A stretch of 64,000 nucleotides of DNA from an uncultured candidatus Porisulfidus sp. (GTDB taxonomy: Bacteria; Pseudomonadota; Gammaproteobacteria; Poriferisulfidales; Poriferisulfidaceae): assembly GCA_965204575.1 (NCBI GenBank), contig OZ241993.1:544001-608000 (forward strand), in the 5' to 3' direction. The translations under genes were made by a program, and so were the position numbers. Positions 20,616 to 48,818 of this stretch are shown here, piece after piece. The notes beneath the pieces were generated by a model. It worked only from the letters and a program-made list of their open reading frames with translations. It had not been told where the DNA came from and searched no databases. Numbering within the stretch: position 1 is the stretch's first letter; each line of letters begins with the position of its first letter.

Positions 20616-20667
20616 TAGAGCTAGGCTCAACTGAAACGGATATAGTTAAGAAAGATATTTAAAAACA

Positions 20668-20707
20668 TCAAGATTATCTTGACATATCTGTACGCAGGCC
20701 TTATACT
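20668..20707 (+). promoter_or_regulatory. Near-consensus sigma70 promoter with a palindrome overlapping the -35 box
   Basis: TTGACA (20679-84), 17-bp spacer, TATACT (20702-07); palindrome TCAAGAT-T-ATCTTGA at 20668-20682. Confidence 0.75.
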
Positions 20708-20738
20708 TCCGCCAGTCTTAATCAAACAGGGCCGACCA

Positions 20739-22003: not shown

Positions 22004-22218
22004 GAGGCAACGCCACCATGCGAATTTGCCCCCAAACCAACGTCCCCAGATGCCATCGCAACCCACCTGCCGCTGGTCTCGCTGTGTGCAGTTTTCTGGA
22101 ATCATCAACATTCTTGACGCCCTGGGCGGAATAGAGGACTATAAATAGCGTGCCGAAGCGTCTTTTTGCAAATCATGAAGATTGAACACAGACGACCCTC
22201 TCCCGCGAGCCACATCTC

Positions 22219-23934: not shown

Positions 23935-23946
23935 CAACTCTTTTTT

Positions 23947-24996: not shown

Positions 24997-25025
24997 TGCC
25001 AAACATTTTCTATAGAAGTCCTGCG

Positions 25026-33229: not shown

Positions 33230-33826
33230 ATGCTCTTGCCAAGAAAAGGAAAGTCGCAGTTCGTTGCGGCACTGGCCGCGCTGCTGCTTTCAGGAGATCT
33301 GCTGATGGCTGCGAACGACGATGCCCCCCAAGTCCGGATGGAAACCTCGTCCGGAACCCTCGTGATTGAACTGGACGCGAAGAACGCGCCGGAGACGACC
33401 AAGAACTTCCTGATCTACGTCGATGACGGCTTCTACAACGGGACGATCTTCCACCGCGTGATCAAGGGATTCATGATTCAGGGCGGTGGATACGACCGGG
33501 ATTTCAAACAAAGACCGACCCTGCCGCCGATTCAAAACGAGGCGGACAATGGCCTGAAGAACGAGCGGGGCACCATCGCCATGGCCCGCACCGGCGATCC
33601 GCATTCGGCCACTGCGCAGTTTTTCATCAACTCGGTCGACAATGACTTTCTGGATCACCAGGAAAAGAGTCCCCAAGGCTGGGGTTATGCCGTGTTCGGC
33701 AAGGTGGTCGAAGGACTCGAAGTGATCGATGCCATCAGCGGGGTGGCGACCGGCAGGCACGGTCCGCATAGTGACGTCCCCCAGAGCCAGATCCTGATTC
33801 TGAAGGCCGAACGCGTCGAAGACTAA
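33230..33826 (+). CDS. Cyclophilin-type peptidyl-prolyl isomerase with signal peptide (PpiA-like)
   Basis: [32 protein letters not shown]. Confidence 0.95.
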
Positions 33827-33832
33827 TCCGAT

Positions 33833-34843
33833 ATGGACACCTGCGTGGTGGGAGGGGGCATCATCGGTGCGCTCACCGCGCACGCGCTGGCGCAGAAAGG
33901 ATTCGACGTCCGGGTGCTGGATGCCGGCAGGCCTGGCGCCGCTACGCCGGTTTCGGCCGGAATCCTGTTTTCCATTTTCGATCCGACGAGCGATAGCGTT
34001 TGGGCGAACCTCGCGCGTCATGGCCATGCCGCCTATCCGAAATTGTGTGCGGGTATTGAATCGGAAACGGGATTCGAACGGCGCGGGTTGCTCATTGTCG
34101 GCATGGAAGCGAAACAAGCCGAGCAGTGGGCAAGAACCAACAAACTGGATTGTGAAATCTTGTCTCCTGGCGAGTGCCACAGGCGATTTCCGCAGTTGGC
34201 AGTCCCCGAACACGATGTCGCCCTGATGCCGGAGGTGGCCCAGATCGATCCGCCTCGGTTCATGGAAGCGTTCCGCTCCAGGCTTCAGGATGACGGAGTA
34301 TGTTGGGAATCTGCCCGGGTTTCCGGGATCTTGCAGGACGGAGATCGGGTCCGGGGCGTGAGCAATGGCGAGCAGGAATGGCAGGCTGAGCAAGTGGTGA
34401 TTGCGGCAGGCGCCTGGAGCACGGAACTCCAACAGGCCACAGGATCAGAACCGCTGATTCGCCCGCGCCGAGGACAGATCATCGCCTGGCGGTCGGTCGA
34501 TGCGGGGAACCTGCCGGTCATTTTGGATGGCCACCGGTATCTGGTAGTGCGGGAGAGCGGCGAGGTGCTGGCAGGGGCGACCAACGAGGATGTAGGATTT
34601 GATGCGGGTGTTACCGCGCAGGCAAAGGCAGAACTGACGGACTTTGCTCGGCGCTGGTGTCCGGACTTGCTGGCGGCGGAGCCGGACACGCAAAGGGCAG
34701 GCCTGCGCCCGGAAGGAAAAGCTTCTGGGCCGAGGATCGGCGCACATGGCAAGATTCAGGGGCTGTTTTTCAATACCGGGCACTACCGGCACGGGATTGT
34801 TTGCGCGCCAGGCGCTGCGGCGCAACTCGCCGAGAACTTCTGA
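33833..34843 (+). CDS. FAD-dependent oxidoreductase, glycine oxidase (ThiO)/DAO family
   Basis: VVGGGIIG Rossmann motif, AAGAWS, PRRGQI, GLRP, GHYRHGI. Confidence 0.85.
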   Translation: MDTCVVGGGIIGALTAHALAQKGFDVRVLDAGRPGAATPVSAGILFSIFDPTSDSVWANLARHGHAAYPKLCAGIESETGFERRGLLIVGMEAKQAEQWARTNKLDCEILSPGECHRRFPQLAVPEHDVALMPEVAQIDPPRFMEAFRSRLQDDGVCWESARVSGILQDGDRVRGVSNGEQEWQAEQVVIAAGAWSTELQQATGSEPLIRPRRGQIIAWRSVDAGNLPVILDGHRYLVVRESGEVLAGATNEDVGFDAGVTAQAKAELTDFARRWCPDLLAAEPDTQRAGLRPEGKASGPRIGAHGKIQGLFFNTGHYRHGIVCAPGAAAQLAENF

Positions 34844-34947
34844 TCACAAAGCTCGCGGCTTCCGTTGAACGCAAATCCCCTATAATTCGTATTTCATTTT
34901 TCCGATTCCCCGATTTTCCCCTGCCACAGGCTTACAGGAGAAACCCG

Positions 34948-35580
34948 ATGGCTTTGTCACAAGAAGAACTCGACGCAATCATGGAGCGGAAGGGCAAGAT
35001 GCGCCGCGAGGCGTACGATCGTCGTGCCGCCCAGGAAAACAAGGACGAAATCAGTGCCCAGGCGGTCGCGCGCCTGATGGCCCTGCAGGAGTACCAGGAC
35101 GCGAATACCGTCATGTGGTACATCGACTGCCGTTCCGAAACCCGAACCAAGCCCGAACTGCTCGAAGAAGTGGCCAAGGGCGAGAAGAAGATCGTCGTGC
35201 CGTACTGCACGGTAGACGAAAAAGGCGACAACAAGCTCGGCCTTTGGCACATGGAAAGCCTGGAGGAGATGGTGGTCGGCAAGTGGAACATCCTCGAGCC
35301 GCCCAAGGAGATGTGGGGCAACCCGGACAAGGAGCCGCCGGCGGAAGAACTGGACATGGTGATGGTTCCCGGTGTCGGGTTCGACCGCACCGGGGGGCGC
35401 ATGGGCAACGGCCAGGGGTACTACGACCGCCTGCTTGAGCGGGTCCGCCCGGATTGCTCGCTGGTGGCGCTGTGCTACGAGTCGCAGCTATTCGACGAGA
35501 TTCTGGTCGCCCCGCACGACGTGTACATGGATTACGTGGTGACCGAAGACGCGGTGTACAAGGGCCGCGGGCGGGACTGA
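34948..35580 (+). CDS. 5-formyltetrahydrofolate cyclo-ligase (YgfA/MTHFS family)
   Basis: VPGVGFDRTGGRMGNGQGYYDR and PHDVYMD; SD AGGAG. Confidence 0.93.
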   Translation: MALSQEELDAIMERKGKMRREAYDRRAAQENKDEISAQAVARLMALQEYQDANTVMWYIDCRSETRTKPELLEEVAKGEKKIVVPYCTVDEKGDNKLGLWHMESLEEMVVGKWNILEPPKEMWGNPDKEPPAEELDMVMVPGVGFDRTGGRMGNGQGYYDRLLERVRPDCSLVALCYESQLFDEILVAPHDVYMDYVVTEDAVYKGRGRD

Positions 35581-35583
35581 GCC

Positions 35584-36510
35584 ATGCCGGCCCAGATAGA
35601 CGACACTTACGCGGAGGCGTTCCGCAGCCTTTACACTGAGTTCCTGATCACGGCCCGGGACCAAACCTGGGTCAAGCACGCGGTGGATGCCGCGGTCGGG
35701 AATGCCGCCAGCACCATCCTGTGTGACTGCGAGGCCGGCCTGGATCGTTTCGTCGGACCGGGCGGGGACGAATCCTTCGAGACCCCGGACGGTCGTCCGG
35801 GCGCCATCGTGCAACTGCATGTCCCGCGTTTCTGGAAGGATCGGGTGGAGAAGCTGGAGCGGGCCGCGCTGGTCCGGATCAGCCAGAACGTGCTGACCTG
35901 TCCGACGGCGTCCTGCTTCAACCTCCTGGACACCGAGGAGTACTACCAGATGGGACGGAAGGTGGCCTATTTCGGCAATGGCAAGCAACGCCGCATCGAG
36001 CGCTTCGGCCGAAAGATGTGGTGGGTGCCGATCCTGGGCGGCGAGTTCGTGCTGGACCGCCGGCTGGGCTATGCCGACGGCTTGATGGGCGGCAACCTGT
36101 GGTTCTTCGGCAGCGATGCCGATTCCGCGCTTGAGGCCGCCATGAAGGGGGCCGAAGAGATCGCGAAGAGTCCGGGGGTGGTGATGTGCTTTCCGGGCGG
36201 GATCGCGGGATCCGGCTCCAAGCCCGGCAGCAACTACGAATTCTCGATTGCCAGCACCTACGAGAAATACTGCCCCCTGCTGCAGGACGACCCGGAAGTC
36301 GAACAGGGCCTCCCCGAAGGCGTCAACTCGGTCATGGAGATCATCATCAACGGACGCAACCTGGAGACTATCATCCAGGCCACTCACGCGGCCATCGAGG
36401 CCTCCAAGGACACCGAGGGCCTGATCATGATCTCGGCCGGCAACTATGGCGGCCGTCTCGGCAAGAACCTGATCTATCTCGATCCGGACAAGCAGCCTCC
36501 CGTTGAGTGA
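35584..36510 (+). CDS. ftr: Formylmethanofuran:H4MPT formyltransferase family (Ftr/FhcD-like)
   Basis: IDDTYAEAF, CEAG, TPDGRPG, QNVLTCPT, GSGSK, ISAGNYGGRLG. Confidence 0.92.
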   Translation: MPAQIDDTYAEAFRSLYTEFLITARDQTWVKHAVDAAVGNAASTILCDCEAGLDRFVGPGGDESFETPDGRPGAIVQLHVPRFWKDRVEKLERAALVRISQNVLTCPTASCFNLLDTEEYYQMGRKVAYFGNGKQRRIERFGRKMWWVPILGGEFVLDRRLGYADGLMGGNLWFFGSDADSALEAAMKGAEEIAKSPGVVMCFPGGIAGSGSKPGSNYEFSIASTYEKYCPLLQDDPEVEQGLPEGVNSVMEIIINGRNLETIIQATHAAIEASKDTEGLIMISAGNYGGRLGKNLIYLDPDKQPPVE

Positions 36511-37366
36511 GCCCGGCCAGCTGATCGATGGCAATGCGTTGGCGCGCGAAATCCGCGCGCGATTGGCCGAACACCTGGACTCCGCTGCACCGGTAACCCT
36601 GGCGACCGTGCTGGTCGGCGAGGATCCGGCCAGCCAGCTGTACATCTCCCGCAAGATCAAGGAAGCCGGCGAAGTCGGCATTATTTCCCGGCACCAGACG
36701 CTGCCGGCGGACATCGCGCAGGACGACCTCGTCGAGGCGATCCGTATCCTGGCGCACGATGCTTCCGTGCACGGAATCCTGGTGCAGATGCCACTGCCGT
36801 CGGTGCTGGATGCCGCCGAGGTGCTGGCCGCCATCCCTCCGGAGAAAGACGTGGACGGCCTGACGGAAACCAACCTGGGCCGGCTCGCGGCCGGGCTTCC
36901 CGGGCTTCGCCCGTGCACGCCGTTCGGCGTGATGGAACTGCTTCGGCACTACCGGATCACGACTTCCGGGGCAAGCGCGCTGGTGATCGGGCGCTCCCGG
37001 CTGGTGGGCATCCCGATGGCCCTGATGTTGGCCGAGAAGGGGGTGGATGCGACCGTAAGCGTGGCGCACTCGCGAACCCGGGACCTGCAGCAGCTCGCCC
37101 GCGAGTCGGACATCCTGGTGGCGGCGACCGGCAGTCCCGGGATGGTCACGGCGGATTTCGTCAAGCCGGGCGCGGCGGTGTTCGACGTCGGGGTCAGCCG
37201 CGTGGACGGCAAGATTCAGGGTGACGTGTGTTTCGAGGAAGTGCGGGAGGTCGCGGGGTTCGTGACGCCGATGCCCGGCGGTACCGGGCCGATGACGGTG
37301 GCCTGCCTGTTGCTCAACACGGTGCGGGCGGCGGCGATGCAGGGCGTGGTTGCGCCTCTGCCGTAG
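36503..37366 (+). CDS. folD: Bifunctional methylene-THF dehydrogenase / methenyl-THF cyclohydrolase
   Basis: GILVQMPLP, KDVDG, PCTP, GRSRLVG, PGGTGPMT. Confidence 0.95.
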   Translation: MSEPGQLIDGNALAREIRARLAEHLDSAAPVTLATVLVGEDPASQLYISRKIKEAGEVGIISRHQTLPADIAQDDLVEAIRILAHDASVHGILVQMPLPSVLDAAEVLAAIPPEKDVDGLTETNLGRLAAGLPGLRPCTPFGVMELLRHYRITTSGASALVIGRSRLVGIPMALMLAEKGVDATVSVAHSRTRDLQQLARESDILVAATGSPGMVTADFVKPGAAVFDVGVSRVDGKIQGDVCFEEVREVAGFVTPMPGGTGPMTVACLLLNTVRAAAMQGVVAPLP

Positions 37367-37414
37367 CCGCATCTATGGTGTGGGCATCTAAAAATCCGGA
37401 TTCGATGTTCCGGG

Positions 37415-37648
37415 TCATAGGAGCGGATTACCCTTGGCCTTGTGAAAGCCTTCGGCGAAGCCCTCCTTCCATTCCTCGAACAGGACTCTGGCCCGGTTCT
37501 CGGCCCTCAGGTAGAGTTCCTCCGTGAGGTCTTCATCCGCCTGAGAGTAACCCGCGCTGTATGCTTCCTCCAGGAGTTCCATCGATTTGGCGGGTTCCTG
37601 CTCCAGCGTTTCTGCGAGACGGTCCAGAAGGCGAGATTTGTAGCCCAT
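37415..37648 (-). CDS. Small acidic hypothetical protein
   Basis: 77-aa helical-looking ORF co-oriented downstream of the PIN gene. Confidence 0.5.
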   Translation of the reverse strand: MGYKSRLLDRLAETLEQEPAKSMELLEEAYSAGYSQADEDLTEELYLRAENRARVLFEEWKEGFAEGFHKAKGNPLL

Positions 37649-37687
37649 GGTTGTTTTCCGGTAATGAACCTAAAAGATTGCGCCGAT

Positions 37688-38107
37688 TCAACCTGCATCC
37701 CAGGGATTGATGATCTCGACCCCCAGGGCTTCAAAATCCCTCGCGTCCCGGGTGACCAGCGCAAAGTCGTTCGCTACGGCCGTCCCTGCGATCAGGGCGT
37801 CGCTTACTGCGAGTGGATGACCTGAGCGTTTCGCTTTGGCCCGGAGAAGAGCCGCCGCCTCCATCTCTTCTTCCCCGATTGGCAGTATGCGGCCCTTGAA
37901 CAGGTCCATGAGGAAACTGATCTGGATTTTCAGGGTATCTTGGCGGTGCCCTTGCGGGAGAAGATGAACGCCATATTCCAACTCGCCGCACACGACGACG
38001 GATGTCCAGAATTTTTTCCGATCGGCCAGAAAGGCGACAACCGAAGCGGCCGGGTCGTGTTTCGTGAATTCGGAAAACACGTTGGTGTCGAGAAGGAAAC
38101 CAGACAC
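37688..38107 (-). CDS. vapC: PIN-domain VapC toxin
   Basis: LLDTNVFSE, DALIAGTA, LVTRDARDF. Confidence 0.92.
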   Translation of the reverse strand: MSGFLLDTNVFSEFTKHDPAASVVAFLADRKKFWTSVVVCGELEYGVHLLPQGHRQDTLKIQISFLMDLFKGRILPIGEEEMEAAALLRAKAKRSGHPLAVSDALIAGTAVANDFALVTRDARDFEALGVEIINPWDAG

Positions 38108-38108
38108 G

Positions 38109-38426
38109 TCACTCCGTCGCGTAATCAATGAATGGAATGGGGCGCTCCCTCTCCTCTTTCCTTGAAGGAATTTCCAGGCCGTCCTTGGGCAGGTCTTCCG
38201 GATTGGGCCTGAACTTCATGATCATCTCGCCAAGCGACATGCCTGAAGTCTCTGTGGCTTTCCAGGCTTCCCGCGGCATGATGACGAAGGTCTTTTTCAC
38301 CCCGACCTGCTGCGGTCCTTCTTCTTCGGCCAGCCGCAGGATCTCGGACAGGCGGGCCTTGGCCTCGGCGATTGGCCAGACTTTCTCGGACAGTTCAGCG
38401 GCAGGATTTTTCATGGTTCTCTCCAT
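38109..38426 (-). CDS. Phd/YefM-type antitoxin
   Basis: WPIAEAKARLSEILRLAEEEGPQ, directly upstream of the PIN toxin. Confidence 0.85.
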   Translation of the reverse strand: MERTMKNPAAELSEKVWPIAEAKARLSEILRLAEEEGPQQVGVKKTFVIMPREAWKATETSGMSLGEMIMKFRPNPEDLPKDGLEIPSRKEERERPIPFIDYATE

Positions 38427-38431
38427 AAAAA

Positions 38432-38449
38432 CTAGTCTAATCTAGTCTA
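38432..38449. promoter_or_regulatory. CTAGTCTA direct repeat, putative antitoxin operator
   Basis: CTAGTCTA-AT-CTAGTCTA immediately upstream of the antitoxin ATG. Confidence 0.55.
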
Positions 38450-38525
38450 TCATATTTTCCTCGATGTATGGCTTCATTCAGTCGGAATTGCACGATGCCG
38501 GGTGCTATACTGAAAAAACAGCTTC

Positions 38526-38600
38526 GCTCCCTTCGTCTAGCGGTCAGGACATCGCCCTCTCAAGGCGGGAACAGGGGTTCGATTCCCCTAGGGAGCGCCA
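38526..38600 (+). tRNA. tRNA-Glu(CTC)
   Basis: GCTCCCT/AGGGAGC acceptor stem, TCGCC-CTCTCAA-GGCGG anticodon arm, GGTTCGATT, CCA. Confidence 0.95.
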
Positions 38601-38813
38601 TCGCCTGTTTTTCCCGCCCCAAGGTGCCGGGATCTTCTTCCCGAAATTTCAGCCACTGGGTTTTTCATCGGCAAAGGCATTGATGCCGGGGTCGGGCCTG
38701 AGCGAGGCCCAGATGCATAGAGCGTACAGGTCGAGGAATGGTGTTAGAATTTCGGCCAGTTCCTGATGGGAGGTGCAGAATCGTGAATGGTCGTTCCATC
38801 TCTGGGCGGTTCC

Positions 38814-38849
38814 TGCCGCAATATTGCGGCATTAATACCCCCCCCCCCC
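38814..38849. repeat. 18-bp perfect palindrome followed by a C12 homopolymer
   Basis: TGCCGCAATATTGCGGCA (38814-38831); C x12 (38838-38849). Confidence 0.8.
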
Positions 38850-38871
38850 TCTTTCTGAAGGCTCGCACTCG

Positions 38872-41316
38872 ATGTGTGCTGAAGAAACAACGTTTGGCCT
38901 AGCGTCCAGATTTTTCAGATTCTTTCAGGCCGCCGCCATGCTTCTGGCTGCCGCCATTCTTGTCTCGGCCTGTGGAGGCGGAGGCGGGGGCGGTGTTGGA
39001 GGCGGCACCGAAGACACTCGCATGCCTCCTCCCGAGGATCCTCCCCCTGCAGACAATATGGCCGGGGCTCCCACTGATGAGCCCCCTCCTGATGACCCCT
39101 CTCAACAACCTGCGCAACCCGGTTTCCAAGCCCGGGCGCAGGCGATTGCCAGCCAGTACCACAGCAACAGAGAGTTCTCCAACCAGTGGGGTTTGGGCCG
39201 GACCCGGGCCGACCGGGCGTACGCGCATCTGGAACTCGCGCTCGGTTCCGGCTTCAGCGCGGGGAAGGGAGTGACCATCGGGGTCGTCGACACGGGCATT
39301 GACCTCAGCCATCCGTCCTTTGTCACCAACGCCAGTGATCCGGACAAGGACAGGACAATTACCCGACAACTCCTGCCCGGTGCGTCAATTGAAGACGGAA
39401 GCAAGTCTTCGCATGGCACGGCGGTTGCAGGCGTCGCTGCCGGAGGCCGGAATACCGGTTTTTCTCAAGCGGCTCATGGGGTTGCCTGGAACGCCAACCT
39501 TGCAGTCTTCGCCGTTTCGCTGGGGTCTGGAGACGGCACTTACCGTCCCGTGGACTTGTCCGGCTTCGCGCAGCAGCAGGAGGACGACCTGAACCGGTGG
39601 TTCAGCACACCTCTTTCCTGGCGTGGGTCGGGCGGGGAACGCATTGACATCCTGAATTTGAGTTTGGGCATCACTGGGATCATCGAGAGCTACAGCGAGT
39701 CAGCCCTCCGCACCGCTCTTGGCGATGTTATTCAAACCATGGCCCAGGCAGGGGCGTCGGAGAAGACCATCCTGGTTTGGGCGGCCGGCAATAGCCATGG
39801 CGATACGTGTTTGCCCGGTTCGACTGCTGCCGAATGCAGGCAGGGGACAGTCAGTGCGACTTCCCCTTCGATCCTTCCGGGGCTGCCGGCGAAGATCAGC
39901 GAATTGCGGGGCCATGTCGTCGCCGTCGTGTCGGTTGGCGAGAGTGGGGCGATCTCGGGTTTCTCGAACCGCTGCGGAATTGCGGCCGACTGGTGCCTTG
40001 CCGCCCCCGGGGATAACATATTGACCTCCTACTTTGGTCCCAGAAGCGATAACGATCCCACGGTGATACGGGGTTATGGCAGATTCAGAGGCACATCTTT
40101 CGCCGCACCGATGGTGTCGGGCGGACTCGCGTTGATGAAGCAGCTCTTCCGCGGGCAATTGTCGAACACGGCCCTGCTTTCCCGGCTTTTCGCGACGGCC
40201 GACAAGAGCGGCAGGTACGCCAACCGGAGCATTTATGGCCAAGGCCTGATGGACCTTGGCGCCGCAACGACCCCCCGTGGGCAAACCACCGTGGCGATTG
40301 GCAATAGAGTCGGAGGCCCCGGCGGGAATCTGCAAACGTCCAACATCGTGCTCGGCCGCGCGTTTGGCGACGGGCTGACGCAATCTTTCGCGGGCAGGGA
40401 GATCGCGGCATTCGATTCACTGGGGGCGCCGTTCTGGTTTGATCTTGGCAACTTCGCGACTCCCGTGCGTACCCCCTCGTTGGCGAGACGACTCAAGAAC
40501 TTTATGGCGCGGACGCCGGAAGCGCCAGGAACCGAGGCTCGACGGACTTCTTTTTTCGCGGGGACAGGAAAAGCGAGACCTGGCCGCTGGCGGCTTGGCT
40601 TGCTGGAGACTCCGGCAGGGGTTCGGGGAGGGCACCTCGGGCTTGCCGGACATGCGAATACTTTCACCTACGAAGGGTGGAAAGATCTGACGGCCACGGC
40701 GTTTTCGACGGAAGGCTTTCGGCAGGCTCCGACATCGGGGGCGGTTCTGTCCTGGCGACCACCCGAAGCCTGGGCCAGCCTGCGTGCCGGCTGGATGATG
40801 GAACGGAAAAGCTTGCTTGGAAGTACGGCAAAAGGGGCTTTCGGCAGCCTGTCTTCCGATTCCGCGTTCATCGGATTCAATGCGGACACTTGGGTTGACG
40901 GGTGGCACCTTGGCGCGAACGCTGAGGTGGGGCTCGCCACCGTAAAACCGCGCAACGGGTTAATTGCGGACGTCTCCCCCGTTGCCACGGGCGCGTTCGC
41001 GGTTCGCGCGACCCGGCCGTTCTCCGGCGATAGGCTGTTGCAGTTTTCCGTGTCGCAGCCGTTGCGGGTCGAGCAGGGCCGCGCCACGCTGTCCGTACCT
41101 GTTGGCCGCACCAAGGATGGCGATGTCTTGCGCCGGTCGGTCGCGGCGGACATTACCCCGACAGGCCGGCAGATCGATGTCACGGCGCACTGGCACCAGC
41201 CGTTGACTACGATGGGTGAATTGCGCTTGGGCGCGGCTTGGACCCGCGATCCGGGACACAGCGCGACGGAAAGTTCGGACCTGTCCTTCATGGTGGGTTG
41301 GCGTTCTCCTTTCTAA
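38872..41316 (+). CDS. S8 (subtilisin-like) serine peptidase with lipoprotein signal and probable C-terminal beta-barrel (autotransporter-like)
   Basis: LVSACGGGG lipobox; triad VVDTG, SHGTAVAG and GTSFAAP; AAGN; ends in F. Confidence 0.88.
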   Translation: MCAEETTFGLASRFFRFFQAAAMLLAAAILVSACGGGGGGGVGGGTEDTRMPPPEDPPPADNMAGAPTDEPPPDDPSQQPAQPGFQARAQAIASQYHSNREFSNQWGLGRTRADRAYAHLELALGSGFSAGKGVTIGVVDTGIDLSHPSFVTNASDPDKDRTITRQLLPGASIEDGSKSSHGTAVAGVAAGGRNTGFSQAAHGVAWNANLAVFAVSLGSGDGTYRPVDLSGFAQQQEDDLNRWFSTPLSWRGSGGERIDILNLSLGITGIIESYSESALRTALGDVIQTMAQAGASEKTILVWAAGNSHGDTCLPGSTAAECRQGTVSATSPSILPGLPAKISELRGHVVAVVSVGESGAISGFSNRCGIAADWCLAAPGDNILTSYFGPRSDNDPTVIRGYGRFRGTSFAAPMVSGGLALMKQLFRGQLSNTALLSRLFATADKSGRYANRSIYGQGLMDLGAATTPRGQTTVAIGNRVGGPGGNLQTSNIVLGRAFGDGLTQSFAGREIAAFDSLGAPFWFDLGNFATPVRTPSLARRLKNFMARTPEAPGTEARRTSFFAGTGKARPGRWRLGLLETPAGVRGGHLGLAGHANTFTYEGWKDLTATAFSTEGFRQAPTSGAVLSWRPPEAWASLRAGWMMERKSLLGSTAKGAFGSLSSDSAFIGFNADTWVDGWHLGANAEVGLATVKPRNGLIADVSPVATGAFAVRATRPFSGDRLLQFSVSQPLRVEQGRATLSVPVGRTKDGDVLRRSVAADITPTGRQIDVTAHWHQPLTTMGELRLGAAWTRDPGHSATESSDLSFMVGWRSPF

Positions 41317-41417
41317 TCGCCGAAGCACTCCAGAAATAATCGACAGGCCCCGTGACGGAGGCCTCGTGCAGCGGGGTTCGAATTTGGGGATTACATAGAT
41401 AACTTGACAAACACAAG

Positions 41418-41549
41418 TCAGACTTCCTTGACATAGGGTTTGCCTTTCTTATCCGTCCGCATCACGAACTTCCATTCAAGGTCTTTCATCGTGGGCGTGG
41501 CGTGAAAATCACAGCCTTTGTTGAATGGTGGGTCAGTGCGATAAAAGGC
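41418..41549 (-). pseudogene. Relic of an amino-DNA methyltransferase gene
   Basis: Startless frame ...TDPPFNKGCDFHATPTMKDLEWKFVMRTDKKGKPYVKEV* containing catalytic motif IV (DPPF). Confidence 0.55.
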
Positions 41550-41607
41550 CTATAGAAAATATAGCGTTAATTTTGTTAACTAAAGTAGATGATTCCCAAA
41601 AAAAGGT

Positions 41608-42279
41608 CTATAACATGTATTCTTTCAGGAGATCCGGTAATTGCCCTATTGTCAAAGCATGACTTTTAGGTGCTTGTGATCTCTGATGACTTTGCAGATC
41701 ACGCAGTCTCTTGGCATTGTTTTCTTGATAGTATTCTCCATCCACAATTACAGCTAGCACCAACTTTTCATCCCTGCAATGCAGGAACCGTTTCATCAAT
41801 TCAACCATTTCCTGGTATTGGCTATCCTGGTTTCCTCCCCCTTCCTTGGTGTATTTATGCATGGCATAGAATGTAGCATTCTCGGTTTTCCACCGAAAAT
41901 CCAAACTTTTCCCGGGAAGATTCGGCATCTGCTTGAGTTGTACAACATTGCCATCACTACTTACCTTGAAAGCGTTTTTCCCACTTTTAGGTAGCGTTTT
42001 GAATTTCTCTACCCCAGGCAAGGCCTCAATCCACTTGGCAGCTTCTTTCTCATGTACGCCCATCCGCCTTGGCTCTTTGGCAAAATGGGCCGCGAACATG
42101 GGGTCTTGCTTGATTTTGTCTAACACATCCTCTGTGGGGTACCCAAATCGACTTACAAAAGTATCTACACGCTTAAGTAACCGATCATCTTTCCTATATG
42201 CTTCTTGAACCACCTTCTGATTAAACAATCTCCAATATTGTTCTTCGATTGCGTCATAATCAGGAGGGTCAACCGACAT
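41608..42279 (-). CDS. Putative restriction endonuclease (PD-(D/E)xK-like)
   Basis: KSLDF...HKYTKEGGGNQDSQY...IVDGEYY; overlaps the MTase stop; AT-rich. Confidence 0.6.
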   Translation of the reverse strand: MSVDPPDYDAIEEQYWRLFNQKVVQEAYRKDDRLLKRVDTFVSRFGYPTEDVLDKIKQDPMFAAHFAKEPRRMGVHEKEAAKWIEALPGVEKFKTLPKSGKNAFKVSSDGNVVQLKQMPNLPGKSLDFRWKTENATFYAMHKYTKEGGGNQDSQYQEMVELMKRFLHCRDEKLVLAVIVDGEYYQENNAKRLRDLQSHQRSQAPKSHALTIGQLPDLLKEYML

Positions 42280-43201
42280 GGTGGATAATTCCACGCGCCA
42301 ATGCCCAATCGCACCGCCTACGATATTTCCCGTCCTTCCTGATGCCCTTGTAGCAGGTCATCAGGACATCTTGCGTTTTTCCTCTGATCTCTGCTAGTAA
42401 CCTGTTCCACTCTCGAATTTTTACATCACCAACATTTAACTTCGTTATGTGTCTTCCGGTGGGCTTGACCTCGTAATCAGCCAATTCCCCAACATCGCAG
42501 AATCTTATGGAAGCCTCTTTGGTGTTGTCTAACGCAATCAAACCTACATTCCCGTCAGGATCATTAAATCGGACAGGAACTCCATCCTGCTGAGGTGTTG
42601 GCTTAATCTTTTGGAGGACGGACAACAACCCGACCCGTTTAGTACCAGACCACACTTCTACATCACACACCGAATCGGGAACAAACAATGCCAGCCCGAC
42701 AGGATGTTGTGTCTCGGAAAACATCTTTACTGTAAGAGAGACAAATGACTCTAGTCTGTCTTGAAAGAGGTTGGCCGTGATAAAAGATTCTGGAACCAGC
42801 GCGGCAACATAAGGGCAATTATCGAGACATTTCGCCAAAGCGTATTTATAGAGATCATCATACGGACAATCGGGGAAATCCAGCCCGCGAACTGTTGCAC
42901 TATTCTTGGCCAGCCACGGCGGATTCGTTACGCAAAGGTCGTAGCCTTTGGGAAACCTTTTCAAGGTGTCCCGTTCTTTCACTGCCACCGCACCGGGTGC
43001 TATGTCATATGAATCGGACTGCTGGCACAGCCCCATCTCAGACAACATTTCAATCAGGCTGTTCGATCCAGCGAACGGCTCGAGTATATGAGTATTAGGG
43101 AGGCCCGCACGGGTTGCCCATTCCGAAAAAGGCGGAGCAGAAAATGGGTTCCCGGAAGTGTAGTAGCAACCCATTCCCCGCTTTAGGTCTGGGAGAGTCA
43201 T
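42269..43201 (-). CDS. Small amino (N6A/N4C) DNA methyltransferase
   Basis: GCYYT (motif X), ILEPFAGS (motif I), TNPPW (motif IV), DLY. Confidence 0.75.
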   Translation of the reverse strand: MTLPDLKRGMGCYYTSGNPFSAPPFSEWATRAGLPNTHILEPFAGSNSLIEMLSEMGLCQQSDSYDIAPGAVAVKERDTLKRFPKGYDLCVTNPPWLAKNSATVRGLDFPDCPYDDLYKYALAKCLDNCPYVAALVPESFITANLFQDRLESFVSLTVKMFSETQHPVGLALFVPDSVCDVEVWSGTKRVGLLSVLQKIKPTPQQDGVPVRFNDPDGNVGLIALDNTKEASIRFCDVGELADYEVKPTGRHITKLNVGDVKIREWNRLLAEIRGKTQDVLMTCYKGIRKDGKYRRRCDWALARGIIHHVG

Positions 43202-43419
43202 CCTGCAAATGTTAGCATATTTCGGTAGGCTAACTTTGTATATGTGGTATTTTAATATAGAAATGTCAATAATTTCCACTACATACAGTATACTCTCCGC
43301 CACCTTACCAAAGCATTGTTTGCTCTCTGTCAACTAAAGTATGTAATTCCCTCGAATTTGGTGAAATCCCCGCTCTGTGGCATATTACGCGCCTAGCGGG
43401 CTGGCGACGGGTGCTTTTG

Positions 43420-43523: not shown

Positions 43524-44804
43524 ATGCCCGCTGAAAAACTTGTCTTTCCTGGCCGCAACTATCTCTACGCGCCAGGACCCACGCATATCCCGGTCGAGGT
43601 TCAGAACGCCATGGTCGTCCCGATGGAGGATCATCGGGCGCCCGATTTCCCCCAGCTGGTCAAACCCCTCCTGCGCGACCTGAACAAGATCTTCAAGACC
43701 CGCACCGGCAAAAGTTTCATCTTTCCCGCCACCGGCACGGCCGGCTGGGAAGTGGCCCTGACCAACACCCTGTCGCCCGGCGACCGCGTCCTGACTGCCC
43801 GTTTCGGGCAGTTTTCGCATCTGTGGGCGGACCTGGCCGCGCGCATGGGCCTGGATGTGGAACTGGTGCAGGTGAAGTGGGGCGAAGGCGTGCCGCTGAA
43901 GCAGTTCGAGCAGATCCTGAGAAAAGACAAGGAGCATAAGATCAAGGCAGTGCTGGCCTGCCACAACGAGACCGCGACCGGGGTGACCAGCAACATCGCG
44001 GGCCTGCGCCGGGCCATGGACCGGGCCAAGCACCCGGCCATGCTGATGGTCGACGGCGTCAGCTCCATCGCGAGCATCGACTTCCGCATGGACGAATGGA
44101 AGGTCGACGTGGCCGTGTCCGGTTCGCAGAAGGGCTTCATGCTGCCGGCCGGCATGGCGCTGGTGTGCTTCTCGCGCCGCGCACTGACGGCAGCCAAGAC
44201 CGCCAAGTGCAGGCGTTGCTTCCTGGACATCGCCGATCACATCGCGACCAACAAGGACGGATTCTTCCCGTACACCCCCTCGGCACCGATGCTGCGCGGC
44301 CTGCGCGCCTCCATCGACCTGTTGCTCGGGGAAGGCCTGGAGAACGTGTTCCAGCGCCACCACCGGCTGGCCGAAGGCGTGCGCCGGGCCATTGGCGGAT
44401 GGGGCCTGGACCTGTGCGCGGCCGAGCCGAAGTGGTATTCCGACACGGTATCGGCCATCAAGGTCCCGAGAAACGTCAATGCTGCCGAAGTGATCCACAT
44501 CGCCTACCACCGCTACAACATCTCGCTGGGCGCCGGCCTGTCCGAGGTCGCCGGCAAGGTGTTCCGAATCGGCCATCTGGGCGACAACAACGAAGTGCGC
44601 ATGATGGCGGCCCTCGGCGGCGTCGAGATGGCGATGCGCGACGCCGGCATGAAGGTGCGCCCGGGTTCGGGCGTGGCCAAGGCGGTCGAGTACTACTGCG
44701 ACACCGCGAAGGGCAAGAAGAAGATCCCTGCATTCGGTGCCGCCAAAGGCCCCCGCGAGACCGCGGCCAAGAAGAAAGCGGCGCCCAGGCGCAAGAAGAA
44801 GTAA
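43524..44804 (+). CDS. sga: Serine-glyoxylate aminotransferase
   Basis: PGPT, HNETATGV, DGVSS, GSQKG (PLP lysine), FRIGHLG; serine-cycle context. Confidence 0.93.
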   Translation: MPAEKLVFPGRNYLYAPGPTHIPVEVQNAMVVPMEDHRAPDFPQLVKPLLRDLNKIFKTRTGKSFIFPATGTAGWEVALTNTLSPGDRVLTARFGQFSHLWADLAARMGLDVELVQVKWGEGVPLKQFEQILRKDKEHKIKAVLACHNETATGVTSNIAGLRRAMDRAKHPAMLMVDGVSSIASIDFRMDEWKVDVAVSGSQKGFMLPAGMALVCFSRRALTAAKTAKCRRCFLDIADHIATNKDGFFPYTPSAPMLRGLRASIDLLLGEGLENVFQRHHRLAEGVRRAIGGWGLDLCAAEPKWYSDTVSAIKVPRNVNAAEVIHIAYHRYNISLGAGLSEVAGKVFRIGHLGDNNEVRMMAALGGVEMAMRDAGMKVRPGSGVAKAVEYYCDTAKGKKKIPAFGAAKGPRETAAKKKAAPRRKKK

Positions 44805-44814
44805 GAGGTCCTGA

Positions 44815-45756
44815 ATGAGCCACACTCAAGCCACCCCCGCGCCGACCCGCCTGCAGCGCAGCGAACTGGCGGTCCCGGGTTCCAACCCGGCGCTGTTCGA
44901 AAAAGCGCTGAACTCCGAGGTTGACTACGTCTTCCTGGACCTGGAGGACGCGGTCGCGCCGGGCGACAAGGAGCAGGCCCGGATCAATGTCATCCAGGCC
45001 CTGCTTGACCTGGACTGGCGAGGGGCGGGAAAAACCATCTCGGTTCGGATCAACGGACTCGACACTCACTACATGTACCGCGACGTCGTGGACCTGATGG
45101 AACAGGCGGGAGACCGTCTGGACACGATCCTGATTCCGAAAGTCGGAGTGCCGTCGGACGTCTACATGGTTGAGGCGATGGTGAACCAGATCGAACAGGG
45201 GAAAGGCTTCGAGACCCGGGTCGGCCTGGAAGCCCTGATCGAAACGGCTCTCGGCATGGCCAACGTCGAGGCGATCGCCGCCTACGGCGGACGCCTGGAG
45301 GCCCTGCACTTCGGGGTGGCGGACTACGCCGCTTCCAACCGCGCGCGCACGGTCAACATCGGCGGGCTCAATCCCGACTACCCGGGAGACCAGTGGCACT
45401 TCGCCCTGTCCCGCATGACGGTGGCCTGCCGGGCGTACGGCCTGCGGGCGATCGACGGGCCGTTCGGCGACTTCAAGGATCCGGATGGCTACCGCGCGGC
45501 CGCGCGCCGCGCCGCTGCGCTCGGGATCGAGGGCAAGTGGGCGATCCATCCGTCCCAGATCGAACTGGCCAACGAGATCTTCTCTCCGCCGAAGGCGGAA
45601 GTGGACCGGGCCCGGCGGATCCTGAAGGAACTGGAGATTGCGGCGGCGGAAGGCCGGGGCGCGGCTGCCGTCGACGGCAAGATGATCGATGCGGCATCGG
45701 CCCGGATGGCCGAGAATGTGGTGCGTTTGGCGGAAGCAATCGCCGCACGCAGCTGA
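44815..45756 (+). CDS. mcl: Malyl-CoA lyase (CitE family)
   Basis: RLQRSELAVPGSNP, FLDLEDAVAP, THYMYRDV, EGKWAIHPSQ. Confidence 0.92.
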   Translation: MSHTQATPAPTRLQRSELAVPGSNPALFEKALNSEVDYVFLDLEDAVAPGDKEQARINVIQALLDLDWRGAGKTISVRINGLDTHYMYRDVVDLMEQAGDRLDTILIPKVGVPSDVYMVEAMVNQIEQGKGFETRVGLEALIETALGMANVEAIAAYGGRLEALHFGVADYAASNRARTVNIGGLNPDYPGDQWHFALSRMTVACRAYGLRAIDGPFGDFKDPDGYRAAARRAAALGIEGKWAIHPSQIELANEIFSPPKAEVDRARRILKELEIAAAEGRGAAAVDGKMIDAASARMAENVVRLAEAIAARS

Positions 45757-45772
45757 AACGAGGACAAACAAC

Positions 45773-46945
45773 ATGCATATACACGAATACCAGGCCAAGG
45801 AAGTCCTGGCCAACTACGGGATTCAGATCCAGCCGGGGACCCTGGTGTACAGCCCCGATCAGGCGGTCGCGGCCTACAACTCCCAGGGATCCGCGGTGTG
45901 CGCGGTCAAGGCGCAGATTCATTCCGGTGCCCGCGGCAAGGCCGGGGGCATCCGCCTGTGCCGGAGCAACGACGAGGTGCGCCGTGCCGCCGACGAGATG
46001 CTCGGCGAGAAGCTGGTGACCCACCAGACCGGTTCGAGCGGCAAGCTGGTGCAGAAACTGTACGTCGAGGCCGGGGTCGACATCGACCGCGAAATCTACC
46101 TCGCGTTCGTGCTGGACCGGGCCAAGCAGCGGCACGTCGCCGTGGCTTCCGCCGAGGGCGGCATGGAGATCGAGCAGCTGGCCCAGGAGAAGCCGGACAG
46201 CATCCTGCGCATCAGCATCGACCCGGCTTCCGGCATGCGCCACTTCCAGGCGCAGGAACTCGCTTTCGGGCTGGGCCTGGGAGCCGATCTGGTCAAGCAG
46301 GCGGTGGCCACGTTCCGCGGCCTGTACAAGGCGATGATCGAACTGGATGCCAGCATGGTCGAGATCAATCCATTGGTGGTGACCCGGGACCGTCGCCTGA
46401 TCGCGCTGGACGCCAAGATGGAATTCGACGACAACGCGCTGTTCCGCCACCGCGAGGTGGCCGAGTTGCGCGACATGTCGCAGGAGGACCCGCGCGAGAC
46501 CGCGGCCTCCGACCACGACCTCAGCTACGTGGGACTGGATGGCGACATCGGCTGCATGATCAACGGGGCCGGGCTGGCCATGGCCACCATGGACATGATC
46601 AAGCTGTCCGGAGGCGAGCCGGCCAACTTCCTCGACATCGGCGGCGGCGCGTCGCCGGAGCGGGTGGCCAAGGCGTTCGAGCTGGTGCTGCAGGACGGCA
46701 ACGTCAAGGCCATGCTGGTCAACATCTTTGCCGGAATCAACCGCTGCGACTGGATCGCCGAAGGCCTGATCAAGGCACTCGGCGTGGTCGATCTCGGCGT
46801 GCCCCTGGTGGTGCGCCTGTCCGGCACCAATGTGGAGGAAGGCACCCAGATGCTGGTCGACAGCGGATTGCCCATCATCATGGCCGACACGCTGGCCGAT
46901 GCCGCCCAGAAGGCGGTGGCGGCCGCACGGGAACAGGGAGAGTGA
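45773..46945 (+). CDS. mtkA: Malate-CoA ligase (malate thiokinase) beta subunit
   Basis: HEYQAKE, NGAGLAMATMD, NIFAGINRCDW (Mtk-type rather than SucC GGIMRC); located next to mcl. Confidence 0.9.
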   Translation: MHIHEYQAKEVLANYGIQIQPGTLVYSPDQAVAAYNSQGSAVCAVKAQIHSGARGKAGGIRLCRSNDEVRRAADEMLGEKLVTHQTGSSGKLVQKLYVEAGVDIDREIYLAFVLDRAKQRHVAVASAEGGMEIEQLAQEKPDSILRISIDPASGMRHFQAQELAFGLGLGADLVKQAVATFRGLYKAMIELDASMVEINPLVVTRDRRLIALDAKMEFDDNALFRHREVAELRDMSQEDPRETAASDHDLSYVGLDGDIGCMINGAGLAMATMDMIKLSGGEPANFLDIGGGASPERVAKAFELVLQDGNVKAMLVNIFAGINRCDWIAEGLIKALGVVDLGVPLVVRLSGTNVEEGTQMLVDSGLPIIMADTLADAAQKAVAAAREQGE

Positions 46946-46949
46946 CACG

Positions 46950-47837
46950 ATGTCGATTCTGATCAACAAAGACACCAAGATCCTGATCCAGGGCTTCACC
47001 GGCCGGATCGGAACCTTTCATGCCAAGGAGATGCTGGAATACGGCAGCAACGTGGTCGGGGGCGTCACGCCGGGGAAAGGGGGACAGGCGCACCTGAACC
47101 TGCCGGTGTTCAACACCATCAAGGAAGCGGTGGAAGCGACCGGCGCAACGGCCAGCATCGTATTCGTGCCTGCCGCCGCGGCCGCCGACTCGATCATGGA
47201 GGCCGCCGACGGCGGCATCAAGTATTGCGTGGCGATCACCGACGGCATCCCGGCCCAGGACATGATTCGCGTCAAGCGCTTCATGCTGCGCTACCCGAAG
47301 GAGCGCAAGATGATCCTGACCGGGCCCAACTGCGCGGGTTCCATCACGCCGGGCGAAGCGATGCTCGGCATCATGCCGGGCCATATCTACGAGCCGGGCC
47401 GGGTCGGCGTGGTCGGACGTTCCGGCACGTTGGGCTACGAGGCCGCCTCGCAGATGAAGGCCGAAGGCATCGGCATCTCGACCAGCATCGGGATCGGCGG
47501 CGATCCGATCAACGGCAGTTCGCACCGCGACATCCTGGAGTTGTTCGAACAGGACCCCGACACGGACGCGGTCATGATCATCGGCGAGATCGGAGGGCCG
47601 CAGGAAGCCGAAGCGGCGGCATTCGCGCGCGACCACATGAACAAGCCGGTCGCGGCCTACGTGGCCGGGCTGACGGCGCCGAAGGGACGGCGCATGGGCC
47701 ATGCCGGGGCCATCATTTCCGGGAAAGGCGAGAGCGCCTCGGAGAAAGTCGAAATCTTCCAGGAAGCCGGCGTGGCAATCGTGCCGAACCCTTCCGAATT
47801 CGGCACCACCATGAAAGACGTTGTATCAAAGCTCTGA
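46950..47837 (+). CDS. mtkB: Malate-CoA ligase alpha subunit
   Basis: QGFTG, GPNC, RSGTLGYE, RMGHAGA; follows mtkA. Confidence 0.88.
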   Translation: MSILINKDTKILIQGFTGRIGTFHAKEMLEYGSNVVGGVTPGKGGQAHLNLPVFNTIKEAVEATGATASIVFVPAAAAADSIMEAADGGIKYCVAITDGIPAQDMIRVKRFMLRYPKERKMILTGPNCAGSITPGEAMLGIMPGHIYEPGRVGVVGRSGTLGYEAASQMKAEGIGISTSIGIGGDPINGSSHRDILELFEQDPDTDAVMIIGEIGGPQEAEAAAFARDHMNKPVAAYVAGLTAPKGRRMGHAGAIISGKGESASEKVEIFQEAGVAIVPNPSEFGTTMKDVVSKL

Positions 47838-47846
47838 GGAGGCTGC

Positions 47847-48818
47847 ATGTCCAAACCCAAAGTCATTGCCACGCGCCGCTGGCCGGAGCCGGTCGAGGCG
47901 CACCTGTTCGAGCACTACGACTTCACGCTCAACGAGGACGACCACCCGATGGGCGTGGACGAGTTGCACCAGGCTCTGCGCGAGTACGATGCGGTTTGCC
48001 CGACCGTGACGGACCCGATCACCGCCGAGGTGCTCGGCATCGACGGCATCCGCGCGAAAATCCTGGGCAATTTCGGCGTGGGCTTCAACCATATCGACTT
48101 GGACGCGGCCAAGCAGGCCGGCCTCGTGGTGACCAATACGCCGGAAGTTTTAACCGACTGTACCGCCGATATCGCCATGAATCTGTTGCTGACCGCCGCC
48201 CGCCGCACCGGCGAAGGCGAACGGCACCTGCGCGCCGGGGAATGGGCCGGTTGGCGCCCGACCCACATGCTGGCGACCAAGGTCACCGGCAAGACCCTGG
48301 GTTGCGTCGGTTTCGGTCGCATCGCCCAGGCCATGGCCCAGCGCTGCCATCTCGGTTTTGGCATGAAGGTGATCTTCCACGACCCGTACCCGCCGAAGCC
48401 GGAAATCGTGGAAAAATTCCAGGCGACTGCCTGCGATTCGGTCGAGGAAGTGCTGGAGAAGGCGGATTTCGTGTCCCTGCATTGCCCGGGTGGCGAATCG
48501 ACCTATCACCTGATCAACGATGAGCGCCTGGCCCGGATGAAGTCTTCCGCCATACTGGTCAATTCCGCCCGAGGCGACATCATCGACAATCAGGCCCTGA
48601 TCAAGGCGTTGAAGAATGGCACCATCGCGGGGGCCGGGCTCGACGTCTTCGAAGGCGAACCCAAGCTCGACCCGGGATTCCTGGATCTCGAGAATGCGGT
48701 TCTGGTGCCGCACCTCGGAAGCGCGTCGACCGAGACCCGGATCGCCATGGGCATGCGGGTGGTCGAGAACCTGGATATGTTCTTTTCCGACCAGGAGCCG
48801 CGCGACCGCGTCGCCTGA
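47847..48818 (+). CDS. D-glycerate dehydrogenase / hydroxypyruvate-glyoxylate reductase (D-2-hydroxyacid dehydrogenase family)
   Basis: NTPEVLT, GFGRIA, NSARG, GLDVFEGEP, PHLGSA. Confidence 0.88.
   Translation: MSKPKVIATRRWPEPVEAHLFEHYDFTLNEDDHPMGVDELHQALREYDAVCPTVTDPITAEVLGIDGIRAKILGNFGVGFNHIDLDAAKQAGLVVTNTPEVLTDCTADIAMNLLLTAARRTGEGERHLRAGEWAGWRPTHMLATKVTGKTLGCVGFGRIAQAMAQRCHLGFGMKVIFHDPYPPKPEIVEKFQATACDSVEEVLEKADFVSLHCPGGESTYHLINDERLARMKSSAILVNSARGDIIDNQALIKALKNGTIAGAGLDVFEGEPKLDPGFLDLENAVLVPHLGSASTETRIAMGMRVVENLDMFFSDQEPRDRVA

Follow-up and report, generated by a model that had tools for sequence, protein, structure and literature searches.

A divergent Ftr-family formyltransferase paired with a 5-formyltetrahydrofolate cyclo-ligase: a candidate formyl link between methylofuran and folate at the head of a serine-cycle gene cluster

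A 64,000-nucleotide stretch from an uncultured candidatus Porisulfidus sp. of the Gammaproteobacteria (assembly GCA_965204575.1, contig OZ241993.1, positions 544,001 to 608,000; this whole stretch is referred to here as the window) carries three consecutive genes encoding a 5-formyltetrahydrofolate cyclo-ligase of the MTHFS family (cyl), a divergent member of the Ftr/FhcD formyltransferases (ftr2, product Ftr2) and FolD. Ftr2 belongs to a clade apart from FhcD and, in two bacterial phyla, is encoded next to one particular type of cyclo-ligase. We slightly favour the reading that Ftr2 would formylate tetrahydrofolate (THF) at N5 from formyl-methylofuran, with the cyclo-ligase pulling the product to methenyl-THF at the expense of ATP. 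The genomic pattern behind this reading is well supported and, at the level of sequence, suggests a biochemical role in which known enzyme kinds would be put to a new use.

The cyl-ftr2-folD locus and the rest of the genome

The three genes and the putative ribosome-binding motif ahead of them are located in the window as follows.

34936..34941, + strand: AGGAGA, Shine-Dalgarno-like, read from the sequence, 6 nt before the cyl ATG
34948..35580, + strand: cyl, 5-formyltetrahydrofolate cyclo-ligase (MTHFS) family, 210 aa (PF01812, TIGR02727), ATG start
35584..36510, + strand: ftr2, divergent Ftr/FhcD-family formyltransferase, 308 aa (PF01913, PF02741), ATG start
36503..37366, + strand: folD, bifunctional methylene-THF dehydrogenase / methenyl-THF cyclohydrolase, 287 aa (PF00763, PF02882), TTG start

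A first-pass annotation of the window had described a tightly coupled trio with no fhcA, fhcB, fhcC or mch beside the ftr gene and had proposed that the three enzymes might carry a formyl group from methylofuran to folate without passing through free formate. The coupling was borne out by the open reading frame coordinates and family matches, with a gap of 3 bp between cyl and ftr2 (35581-35583) and an overlap of 8 bp between ftr2 and folD (36503-36510), and a Pfam and NCBIfam scan of the window likewise found none of the fhcA, fhcB, fhcC or mch genes adjoining ftr2.

The family assignments differ in how closely each protein fits existing models. The cyl product scored 133 bits on PF01812 and 128 bits on TIGR02727, above the equivalog cut-off of 84.9. 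Its GxGxGYYDR segment, which in MTHFS enzymes has a role in nucleotide and phosphate binding, aligns to that of the MTHFS structures 1SOU, 1YDM and 2JCB, and residues G153-R161 are invariant among 25 sequences. Ftr2 carries both lobes of its family, the distal one matching PF01913 with 136 bits and the proximal one PF02741 with 155 bits (cut-offs 27 and 25, respectively). On TIGR03119, the equivalog model for bacterial FhcD, it reached 277 bits and remained under the cut-off of 292.6, and on the looser subfamily model NF002554 it came just over the cut-off (302.4 bits against 297). The folD product contains the catalytic domain (PF00763, 115 bits) and the NAD(P)-binding domain (PF02882, 200 bits). 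Its best NCBIfam match, NF010785, gave 324 bits against a cut-off of 396, and all 25 models listed stayed under their cut-offs; the gene is still named folD because both domains are present and the NCBIfam FolD cut-offs are lineage-specific.

The genome to which the window belongs is a single contig of 1.82 Mb, estimated to be 98.75% complete, and it holds two Ftr-family genes. The second of these is fhcD in an fhcB-A-D-C operon, 245 kb from the window locus, whose products scored 394.5 bits (FhcD, TIGR03119), 684 bits (FhcA, TIGR03121), 504 bits (FhcB) and 248 bits (FhcC), the last two on their own models. A separate island for tetrahydromethanopterin (H4MPT) metabolism contains mptG, mtdB, an ATP-grasp gene, mch, a RimK-type ligase gene, a CitG-like gene and fae. 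The window Ftr is therefore an extra paralog, because a canonical fhcB-A-D-C operon with its own FhcD exists elsewhere, and the possibility weighed in the first-pass annotation, that it is the genome's only FhcD, does not apply. The MTHFS-family gene and folD are each present in one copy genome-wide, both of them in the window. Formate-THF ligase (FtfL) gave no PF01268 match across this genome of 98.75% completeness, an absence that speaks for the annotation's proposal.

Ftr2 and its cyclo-ligase across genomes

Ftr2 is a distant relative of the FhcD encoded in the same genome (40% identity), and in a library clustered at 50% identity a single full-length representative was 64% identical to it, with the next at 46% or below. 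In a tree of 53 sequences, built with a quick method and no bootstrap, the 14 Ftr2-type rows formed a clade on a stem of 0.46 with a value of 100 in the Shimodaira-Hasegawa-like approximate likelihood ratio test (SH-aLRT), and all archaeal Ftr and bacterial FhcD rows fell opposite this clade. Three of the FhcD-type rows are canonical domains fused to further sequence (P0140, 541 aa; P0148, 592 aa; P0164, 655 aa), and these entered the tree by their Ftr part alone. Against four solved Ftr/FhcD structures the genome's FhcD scored 277-291 bits and Ftr2 155-217 bits, the latter divided between 204-217 bits for three archaeal structures and 155 bits for FhcD of Methylorubrum extorquens (6S6Y_D). 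Because FhcD of the same genome outscores Ftr2 on each of these four structures, Ftr2 is the lineage that diverged.

This divergence is accompanied by strong constraint within the clade, in which 129 of 308 positions are invariant among 18 sequences from two phyla. The glutamate in the VMEIIING motif of Ftr2 aligns with that in VYEIVING of 1FTR, and E252 is invariant in 35 Ftr2 sequences; PMC6926001 gives the catalytic glutamate as Glu245 in Ftr of M. kandleri and Glu252 in FhcD. Matches to Ftr2 were found in 372 species-level genomes, and the hosts of the clade are marine and sponge-associated Gammaproteobacteria and Planctomycetes.

The association of Ftr2 with the cyclo-ligase was examined in 80 Ftr2 loci from named public genomes, 77 of which contained a cyl homologue (65-100% identity, two phyla); in 76 it immediately precedes ftr2 in the same orientation. 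The loci without cyl were L056, where Ftr2 starts at the first base of the contig, L081 and L085, and in L023 and L064 a partial cyl was found at the contig start. Of the 53 genomes (4 families) in the window's order, 50 carried an Ftr2-type gene, 49 an FhcD-type gene and 48 both. Exactly one MTHFS-family match was present in 50 of the 53, and in 49 of those it was located within about 40 nt of Ftr2.

The same pairing was observed when 151 genomes of one planctomycete order were sampled; 62 had an Ftr2-type gene (54-76% identity), 70 had FhcD only and 19 had neither. All 62 Ftr2-bearing genomes contained the cyl type (E <= 1e-48), which adjoined Ftr2 on the same contig in 57. Among the 89 genomes without Ftr2, MTHFS matches were strong in 1, intermediate in 2 and weak in 23, and 63 showed none at E <= 1e-4.

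In a 28-row MTHFS tree, the Ftr2-linked cyclo-ligases grouped as one clade (SH-aLRT 96), which also included the cyclo-ligase of G490, the sole genome with a strong cyl match in which Ftr2 was not found. The end branches of this clade measured 0.06-0.4, and those of 7 of the 12 ordinary planctomycete MTHFS rows 0.8-1.65. The cyl clade lies amid ordinary planctomycete MTHFS rows. Some of these rows belong to genomes with no Ftr-family gene at all, and those enzymes cannot be H4MPT enzymes. Planctomycete sequences are basal in both the Ftr and the MTHFS trees, which fits a planctomycete origin and a later joint transfer of the two genes. Altogether, the separate Ftr clade accompanied by a matching cyclo-ligase clade is the outcome to which the first-pass annotation had looked. 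A predicted complex of Ftr2 with the cyclo-ligase, obtained from alignments A1 and A2, scored 0.00 against a mark of 0.32 and argues neither for nor against binding.

We also considered whether the pair in Planctomycetes could result from binning contamination, and this explanation was rejected. The flanking genes differ from those in Gammaproteobacteria and include the DUF1559 family, which we take to be typical of Planctomycetes; the genomes measure 6.4-7.9 Mb, and the pair is carried by 62 of the 151 sampled members of the order at 54-76% identity.

The gene order around the pair is itself conserved. In Gammaproteobacteria, folD adjoins or follows cyl-ftr2 in 60 of the 80 loci, and genes of the serine cycle are found downstream, namely sga in 52 loci, mcl in 47, mtkA in 43 and mtkB in 39, counts that are lowered by the many loci ending short of sga-mcl-mtkAB. 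Eleven of the 80 loci have no folD and place cyl-ftr2 directly ahead of sga-mcl-mtkAB-hpr. Genomes of 1.2 and 0.9 Mb keep the full order cyl-ftr2-folD-sga-mcl-mtkA-mtkB-hpr unbroken, and genomes from two additional families, one of which belongs to a different order, have it intact with ppc added. The linkage, which the first-pass annotation had allowed might prove a peculiarity of one genome, thus recurs across gammaproteobacterial genomes as cyl-ftr2-(folD)-sga-mcl-mtkAB-hpr. In Planctomycetes the cyl-ftr2 pair stands alone amid unrelated genes. No fhc genes occurred among the recurring families of the 80 loci, in the window, or among the ten planctomycete neighbours scanned.

The distribution of FtfL in Gammaproteobacteria differs between genomes with Ftr2 and those with FhcD only. 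FtfL scored over the cut-off in 3 of the 53 genomes of the window's order (G021, G022 and G028), all three with Ftr2. In an even sample of 401 gammaproteobacterial genomes, 51 of which contain an Ftr-family gene, FtfL was found in 3/11 Ftr2 genomes (all 11 also with FhcD) versus 33/40 genomes with FhcD only. When four unpublished genomes were left out (G310, with Ftr2 and FtfL; G089, G166 and G320, with FhcD only and FtfL), these proportions became 2/10 and 30/37.

Proposed route and competing explanations

Enzymes of the Ftr family yield an N5-formyl-tetrahydropterin and MTHFS enzymes consume one, and the strict pairing of Ftr2 with cyl is most simply explained by this common intermediate. 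The chemistry bears further on the identity of the pterin. As a stable dead-end compound, N5-formyl-THF can re-enter the folate pool only through MTHFS, in a reaction that uses ATP and is irreversible; therefore the Ftr2-cyl pair makes chemical sense with THF. On H4MPT, Mch and FhcD act reversibly and without ATP, and an ATP-driven duplicate of the step that Mch already performs would have little point. Three features of the genomes also point to THF: the pair adjoins folD and the serine-cycle genes, cyl descends from ordinary MTHFS, and FtfL is scarce among the Gammaproteobacteria that carry the pair.

In the route that we favour, Ftr2 would move the formyl group from formyl-methylofuran, made by the canonical Fhc complex from either formyl-H4MPT or formate, to N5 of THF. 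The resulting 5-formyl-THF would be converted by the cyclo-ligase to 5,10-methenyl-THF with the use of one ATP, and FolD would reduce this product to methylene-THF or, as an alternative, open it to 10-formyl-THF; the methylene-THF would supply serine hydroxymethyltransferase and the serine-cycle genes downstream. The cyl-ftr2 module would in this way replace FtfL and Fch at equal ATP cost. THF as the acceptor, formyl-methylofuran as the donor and the direction of flux are the elements of this route that we infer.

Several observations weigh against this route. Of 30 columns conserved to 85% or more among 33 canonical Ftr/FhcD sequences, Ftr2 retains 29, including the catalytic glutamate, and with these positions kept no change of acceptor is demonstrated. 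The sole column lost is a charge reversal at position 19 (Arg in 31/33 canonical sequences, Glu in 18/18 Ftr2), and the clade further differs from the canonical sequences by Tyr in place of Asn at position 226 and by two inserts (60-64 and 82-83). Mch was present in 6/6 Ftr2 genomes checked and in the window genome, and FhcD in nearly all; because they accompany Ftr2 in this manner, Ftr2 may depend on H4MPT. The 11 Ftr2 genomes of the class-wide sample come from 5 families and are not independent. In Planctomycetes there is no contrast in FtfL between genomes with Ftr2 (3/62) and those with FhcD only (2/70), and FtfL was found in 12 of the 19 planctomycete genomes without any Ftr-family gene; in five Ftr2-bearing planctomycete genomes of 6.4-7.9 Mb, FtfL was found in 0/5, with one MTHFS gene each. 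FtfL and Ftr2 occur together in six genomes, the three named above from the window's order and G528, G545 and G595 from the Planctomycetes. The complementarity of Ftr2 and FtfL therefore holds in Gammaproteobacteria and fails in Planctomycetes.

The donor raises a further difficulty. According to the part of PMC6926001 that deals with fractionation, methylofuran in M. extorquens is a non-covalent, tightly bound prosthetic group of Fhc (97%), and by analogy free formyl-methylofuran may be absent as a donor here. Ftr2 may consequently need to dock on FhcABC, and the donor could equally be formyl-methylofuran made from formate on Fhc. In the latter case, with the formyl group derived from formate by the reverse reaction of FhcA, free formate would not be bypassed as the first-pass annotation had proposed, and its interpretation is, overall, partly supported.

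Amongst the competing explanations, the one that deserves the most attention, although we consider it unlikely, is that both proteins act on H4MPT. Ftr2 would then be a stand-alone formyl-methylofuran:H4MPT formyltransferase and the cyclo-ligase would drive 5-formyl-H4MPT to methenyl-H4MPT with ATP, as a push in the reductive direction. The conserved positions of Ftr2 and its occurrence only in genomes with Mch, among those checked, are in agreement with this explanation. However, FhcD and Mch of the window genome already cover both steps reversibly and without ATP, and the cyclo-ligase clade is nested among MTHFS enzymes of genomes without an Ftr-family gene. Additionally, the gammaproteobacterial context of the pair consists of folD and the serine cycle, with H4MPT genes beside it in 0/80 loci, and in the window's order cyl is the sole MTHFS gene in the genome (exactly one match in 50/53). 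A precedent for the H4MPT explanation, and hence a further point against THF, comes from methanogens lacking THF, which have MTHFS homologues that Kaster et al. suggested to act on 5-formyl-H4MPT (PMC3087415).

A somewhat less probable explanation is that the two activities are not coupled, with the cyclo-ligase performing ordinary 5-formyl-THF repair under high serine-cycle flux, Ftr2 being a redundant isoenzyme of FhcD and the genes merely sharing their regulation. 5-Formyl-THF is an inhibitor of serine hydroxymethyltransferase, and the position of cyl at the head of a serine-cycle cluster would suit protection of that enzyme; its score above the bacterial MTHFS equivalog cut-off fits the same role, and as the single copy in the genome it must cover repair too. 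This explanation is difficult to reconcile with the Planctomycetes, where the pair lies amid unrelated genes and yet is complete in 62/62 genomes, and where Ftr2 is missing most genomes have no MTHFS match either (63/89 at E <= 1e-4). The Ftr2 and cyl trees also have parallel shapes across two phyla, and ordinary MTHFS evolves far faster than the cyclo-ligases linked to Ftr2.

The least probable of the explanations considered, in our judgment, is that the flow is reversed or that the partner is another one. The Ftr reaction is near equilibrium, and Ftr2 could shift the formyl group of 5-formyl-THF onto methylofuran, from which FhcA would hydrolyse it to formate in an ATP-free disposal route. 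PMC6926001 reports that, with excess formate, Fhc at equilibrium formylates about 40% of the bound methylofuran, which is compatible with such reversibility. This direction is opposed by the adjoining cyclo-ligase, which irreversibly consumes 5-formyl-THF and would draw flux to methenyl-THF, and by the assimilatory setting of a serine cycle with ppc. As for a donor other than formyl-methylofuran, G008 and G012 (from genus g3 of the window's order, about 0.9 Mb, fragmented, 81% and 93% complete) contain Ftr2, cyl and Mch with fhcD and fhcA not found in these assemblies. Their missing fhc operon may be an assembly gap, since the other 12 Ftr2-bearing genomes of the genus have FhcD; if the loss were true, Ftr2 would be their only formyltransferase, with a bearing on the nature of the donor. 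G461 and G604 also contain Ftr2 without an FhcD match, both with Mch and G604 with FhcA.

Surroundings of the locus and comparison with known systems

The genes that follow the trio in the window correspond to the serine-cycle cluster that the first-pass annotation had placed 6 kb away; sga begins at 43524, 6.2 kb past folD.

43524..44804, + strand: sga-like class-V aminotransferase, in the serine-glyoxylate aminotransferase position (PF00266)
44815..45756, + strand: mcl-like HpcH/HpaI aldolase, in the malyl-CoA lyase position (PF03328)
45689..46945, + strand: mtkA-like ATP-grasp / CoA-ligase beta subunit (PF08442, PF00549), start codon uncertain
46830..47837, + strand: mtkB-like CoA-binding alpha subunit (PF02629, PF00549), real start probably after 46830
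47847..48818, + strand: hpr-like D-2-hydroxyacid dehydrogenase (PF02826, PF00389)
48848..51550, + strand: ppc, phosphoenolpyruvate carboxylase (PF00311, 745 bits)

The spacing between folD and sga is peculiar to the window strain and consists of a conserved tRNA gene and two inserts that are missing in the relatives L006 and L007. Pieces of the two inserts are present in L009 and L011.

37367..38455: strain-variable insert between folD and the tRNA gene, not in L006 or L007
37688..38128, - strand: PIN-domain toxin-like gene within this insert (PF01850)
38526..38600, + strand: tRNA-Glu(CTC), predicted by ARAGORN, an element conserved between folD and sga in the genus (88-99% identity in L006, L007, L015 and L016)
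38606..43351: strain-variable insert of lower G+C (0.52-0.59), not in L006 or L007
38872..41316, + strand: subtilase gene, 814 aa, within the second insert (PF00082)

Upstream of cyl, family matches identified a cyclophilin gene and a gene for a ThiO-like FAD oxidase, and a DNA methylase gene follows ppc.

33230..33826: cyclophilin gene
33833..34843: ThiO-like FAD oxidase gene
51608..52504: DNA methylase gene (PF01555)

The G+C content of the window drops to 0.42-0.47 between 52000 and 56000, compared with about 0.6-0.66 elsewhere; this stretch starts beside the DNA methylase gene and may represent a foreign island, for instance one for restriction-modification. G+C is also lowered, to 0.52-0.57, at 20000-26000. 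In L017 and 20 other loci, a block encoding an ABC ATPase, a DUF6627 protein and a C39-peptidase/TPR protein lies about 2.5 kb upstream of ilvD, ahead of ilvD-cyl-ftr2, and is probably plain synteny. A promoter and terminator scan of 34400-38200 gave no more matches than shuffled sequence. Contigs 90-97% alike over cyl, ftr2, the ftr2/folD overlap and folD were found in the sponge metatranscriptome library X20, which is a weak hint of expression, as the contigs come from a relative and the library may include DNA; stretches lacking coverage carry no information.

Amongst characterized proteins, FhcD of the M. extorquens FhcABCD complex (PDB 6S6Y) shares with Ftr2 the two-lobe fold family (PF01913/PF02741), the catalytic glutamate and 29 of the 30 conserved positions. 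Ftr2 differs from it in scoring 155 bits against this structure, compared with 291 for FhcD of the same genome, in falling under the TIGR03119 cut-off, in being encoded apart from fhcA, fhcB and fhcC and next to a cyclo-ligase, and in the R19E and N226Y changes and the inserts at 60-64 and 82-83. The stand-alone archaeal Ftr enzymes (EC 2.3.1.101; 1FTR/2FHJ/2FHK, 1M5H and 1M5S) are the best-scoring solved relatives, at 204-217 bits, and are likewise encoded by a stand-alone gene; they use diffusible methanofuran and H4MPT in methanogenesis, whereas Ftr2 forms a separate clade in aerobic bacteria within a folate and serine-cycle context.

The cyclo-ligase resembles MTHFS (YgfA; 1SOU, 1YDM, 2JCB and human 3HXT) in its family, its score above the equivalog cut-off and the G-x-G-x-G-Y-Y-D-R segment. 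Whereas ordinary MTHFS acts in repair and is poorly conserved, the cyl clade is 65-100% identical over two phyla, has short branches and was found only alongside Ftr2 save in one of the 151 sampled planctomycete genomes. This conservation and Ftr2-tied occurrence point to a main-flux role, as judged by sequence comparison.

For the pathway as a whole, the closest comparison is the entry from formate to methylene-THF in M. extorquens by FtfL, Fch and MtdA, of which mtdA and fch sit inside the serine-cycle cluster; cyl-ftr2-folD hold the equivalent place here. Both systems have C1-folate genes within that cluster and, in the proposed route, would spend one ATP per C1 unit brought into folate. 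They differ in that FtfL is absent here and FolD stands in for Fch and MtdA, and in that ATP-driven formylation at N10 in M. extorquens contrasts with the proposed N5 formyl transfer followed by ATP-driven cyclisation. The methanogen MTHFS homologue (MTH204 / MTBMA_c06530) is similar as an MTHFS-family gene in organisms where Ftr makes formyl-pterin (PMC3087415), and differs, by its description alone, in that no pairing with Ftr is reported for it. A literature search found no work linking Ftr or FhcD with MTHFS or a cyclo-ligase, with many subscription-journal papers beyond its reach.

When the lines of evidence are taken together, we hold the fuller reading to be about evenly balanced. According to it, Ftr2 would be the first formyl-methanofuran/methylofuran:tetrahydrofolate N5-formyltransferase, and MTHFS would have been recruited from repair to main-flux anabolism, the two enzymes together linking the H4MPT/methylofuran branch to folate independently of FtfL. 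This module would probably be of planctomycete origin and have moved as a unit into marine and sponge-associated Gammaproteobacteria, where it would have come to serve as the entry step into the serine cycle and been retained in genomes as small as about 1 Mb.

To our knowledge, the H4MPT/methanofuran and folate carriers of bacteria are thought to communicate only via free formate or formaldehyde. If the proposed route is true, a direct hand-over of the formyl group would be a new link between the two systems and would give 5-formyl-THF and its cyclo-ligase a new physiological role. It would also account for the operation of a serine cycle in abundant marine and sponge-associated bacteria that lack formate-THF ligase, and the two-gene module, being small and widespread, may be of use in engineering the assimilation of formate or methanol.

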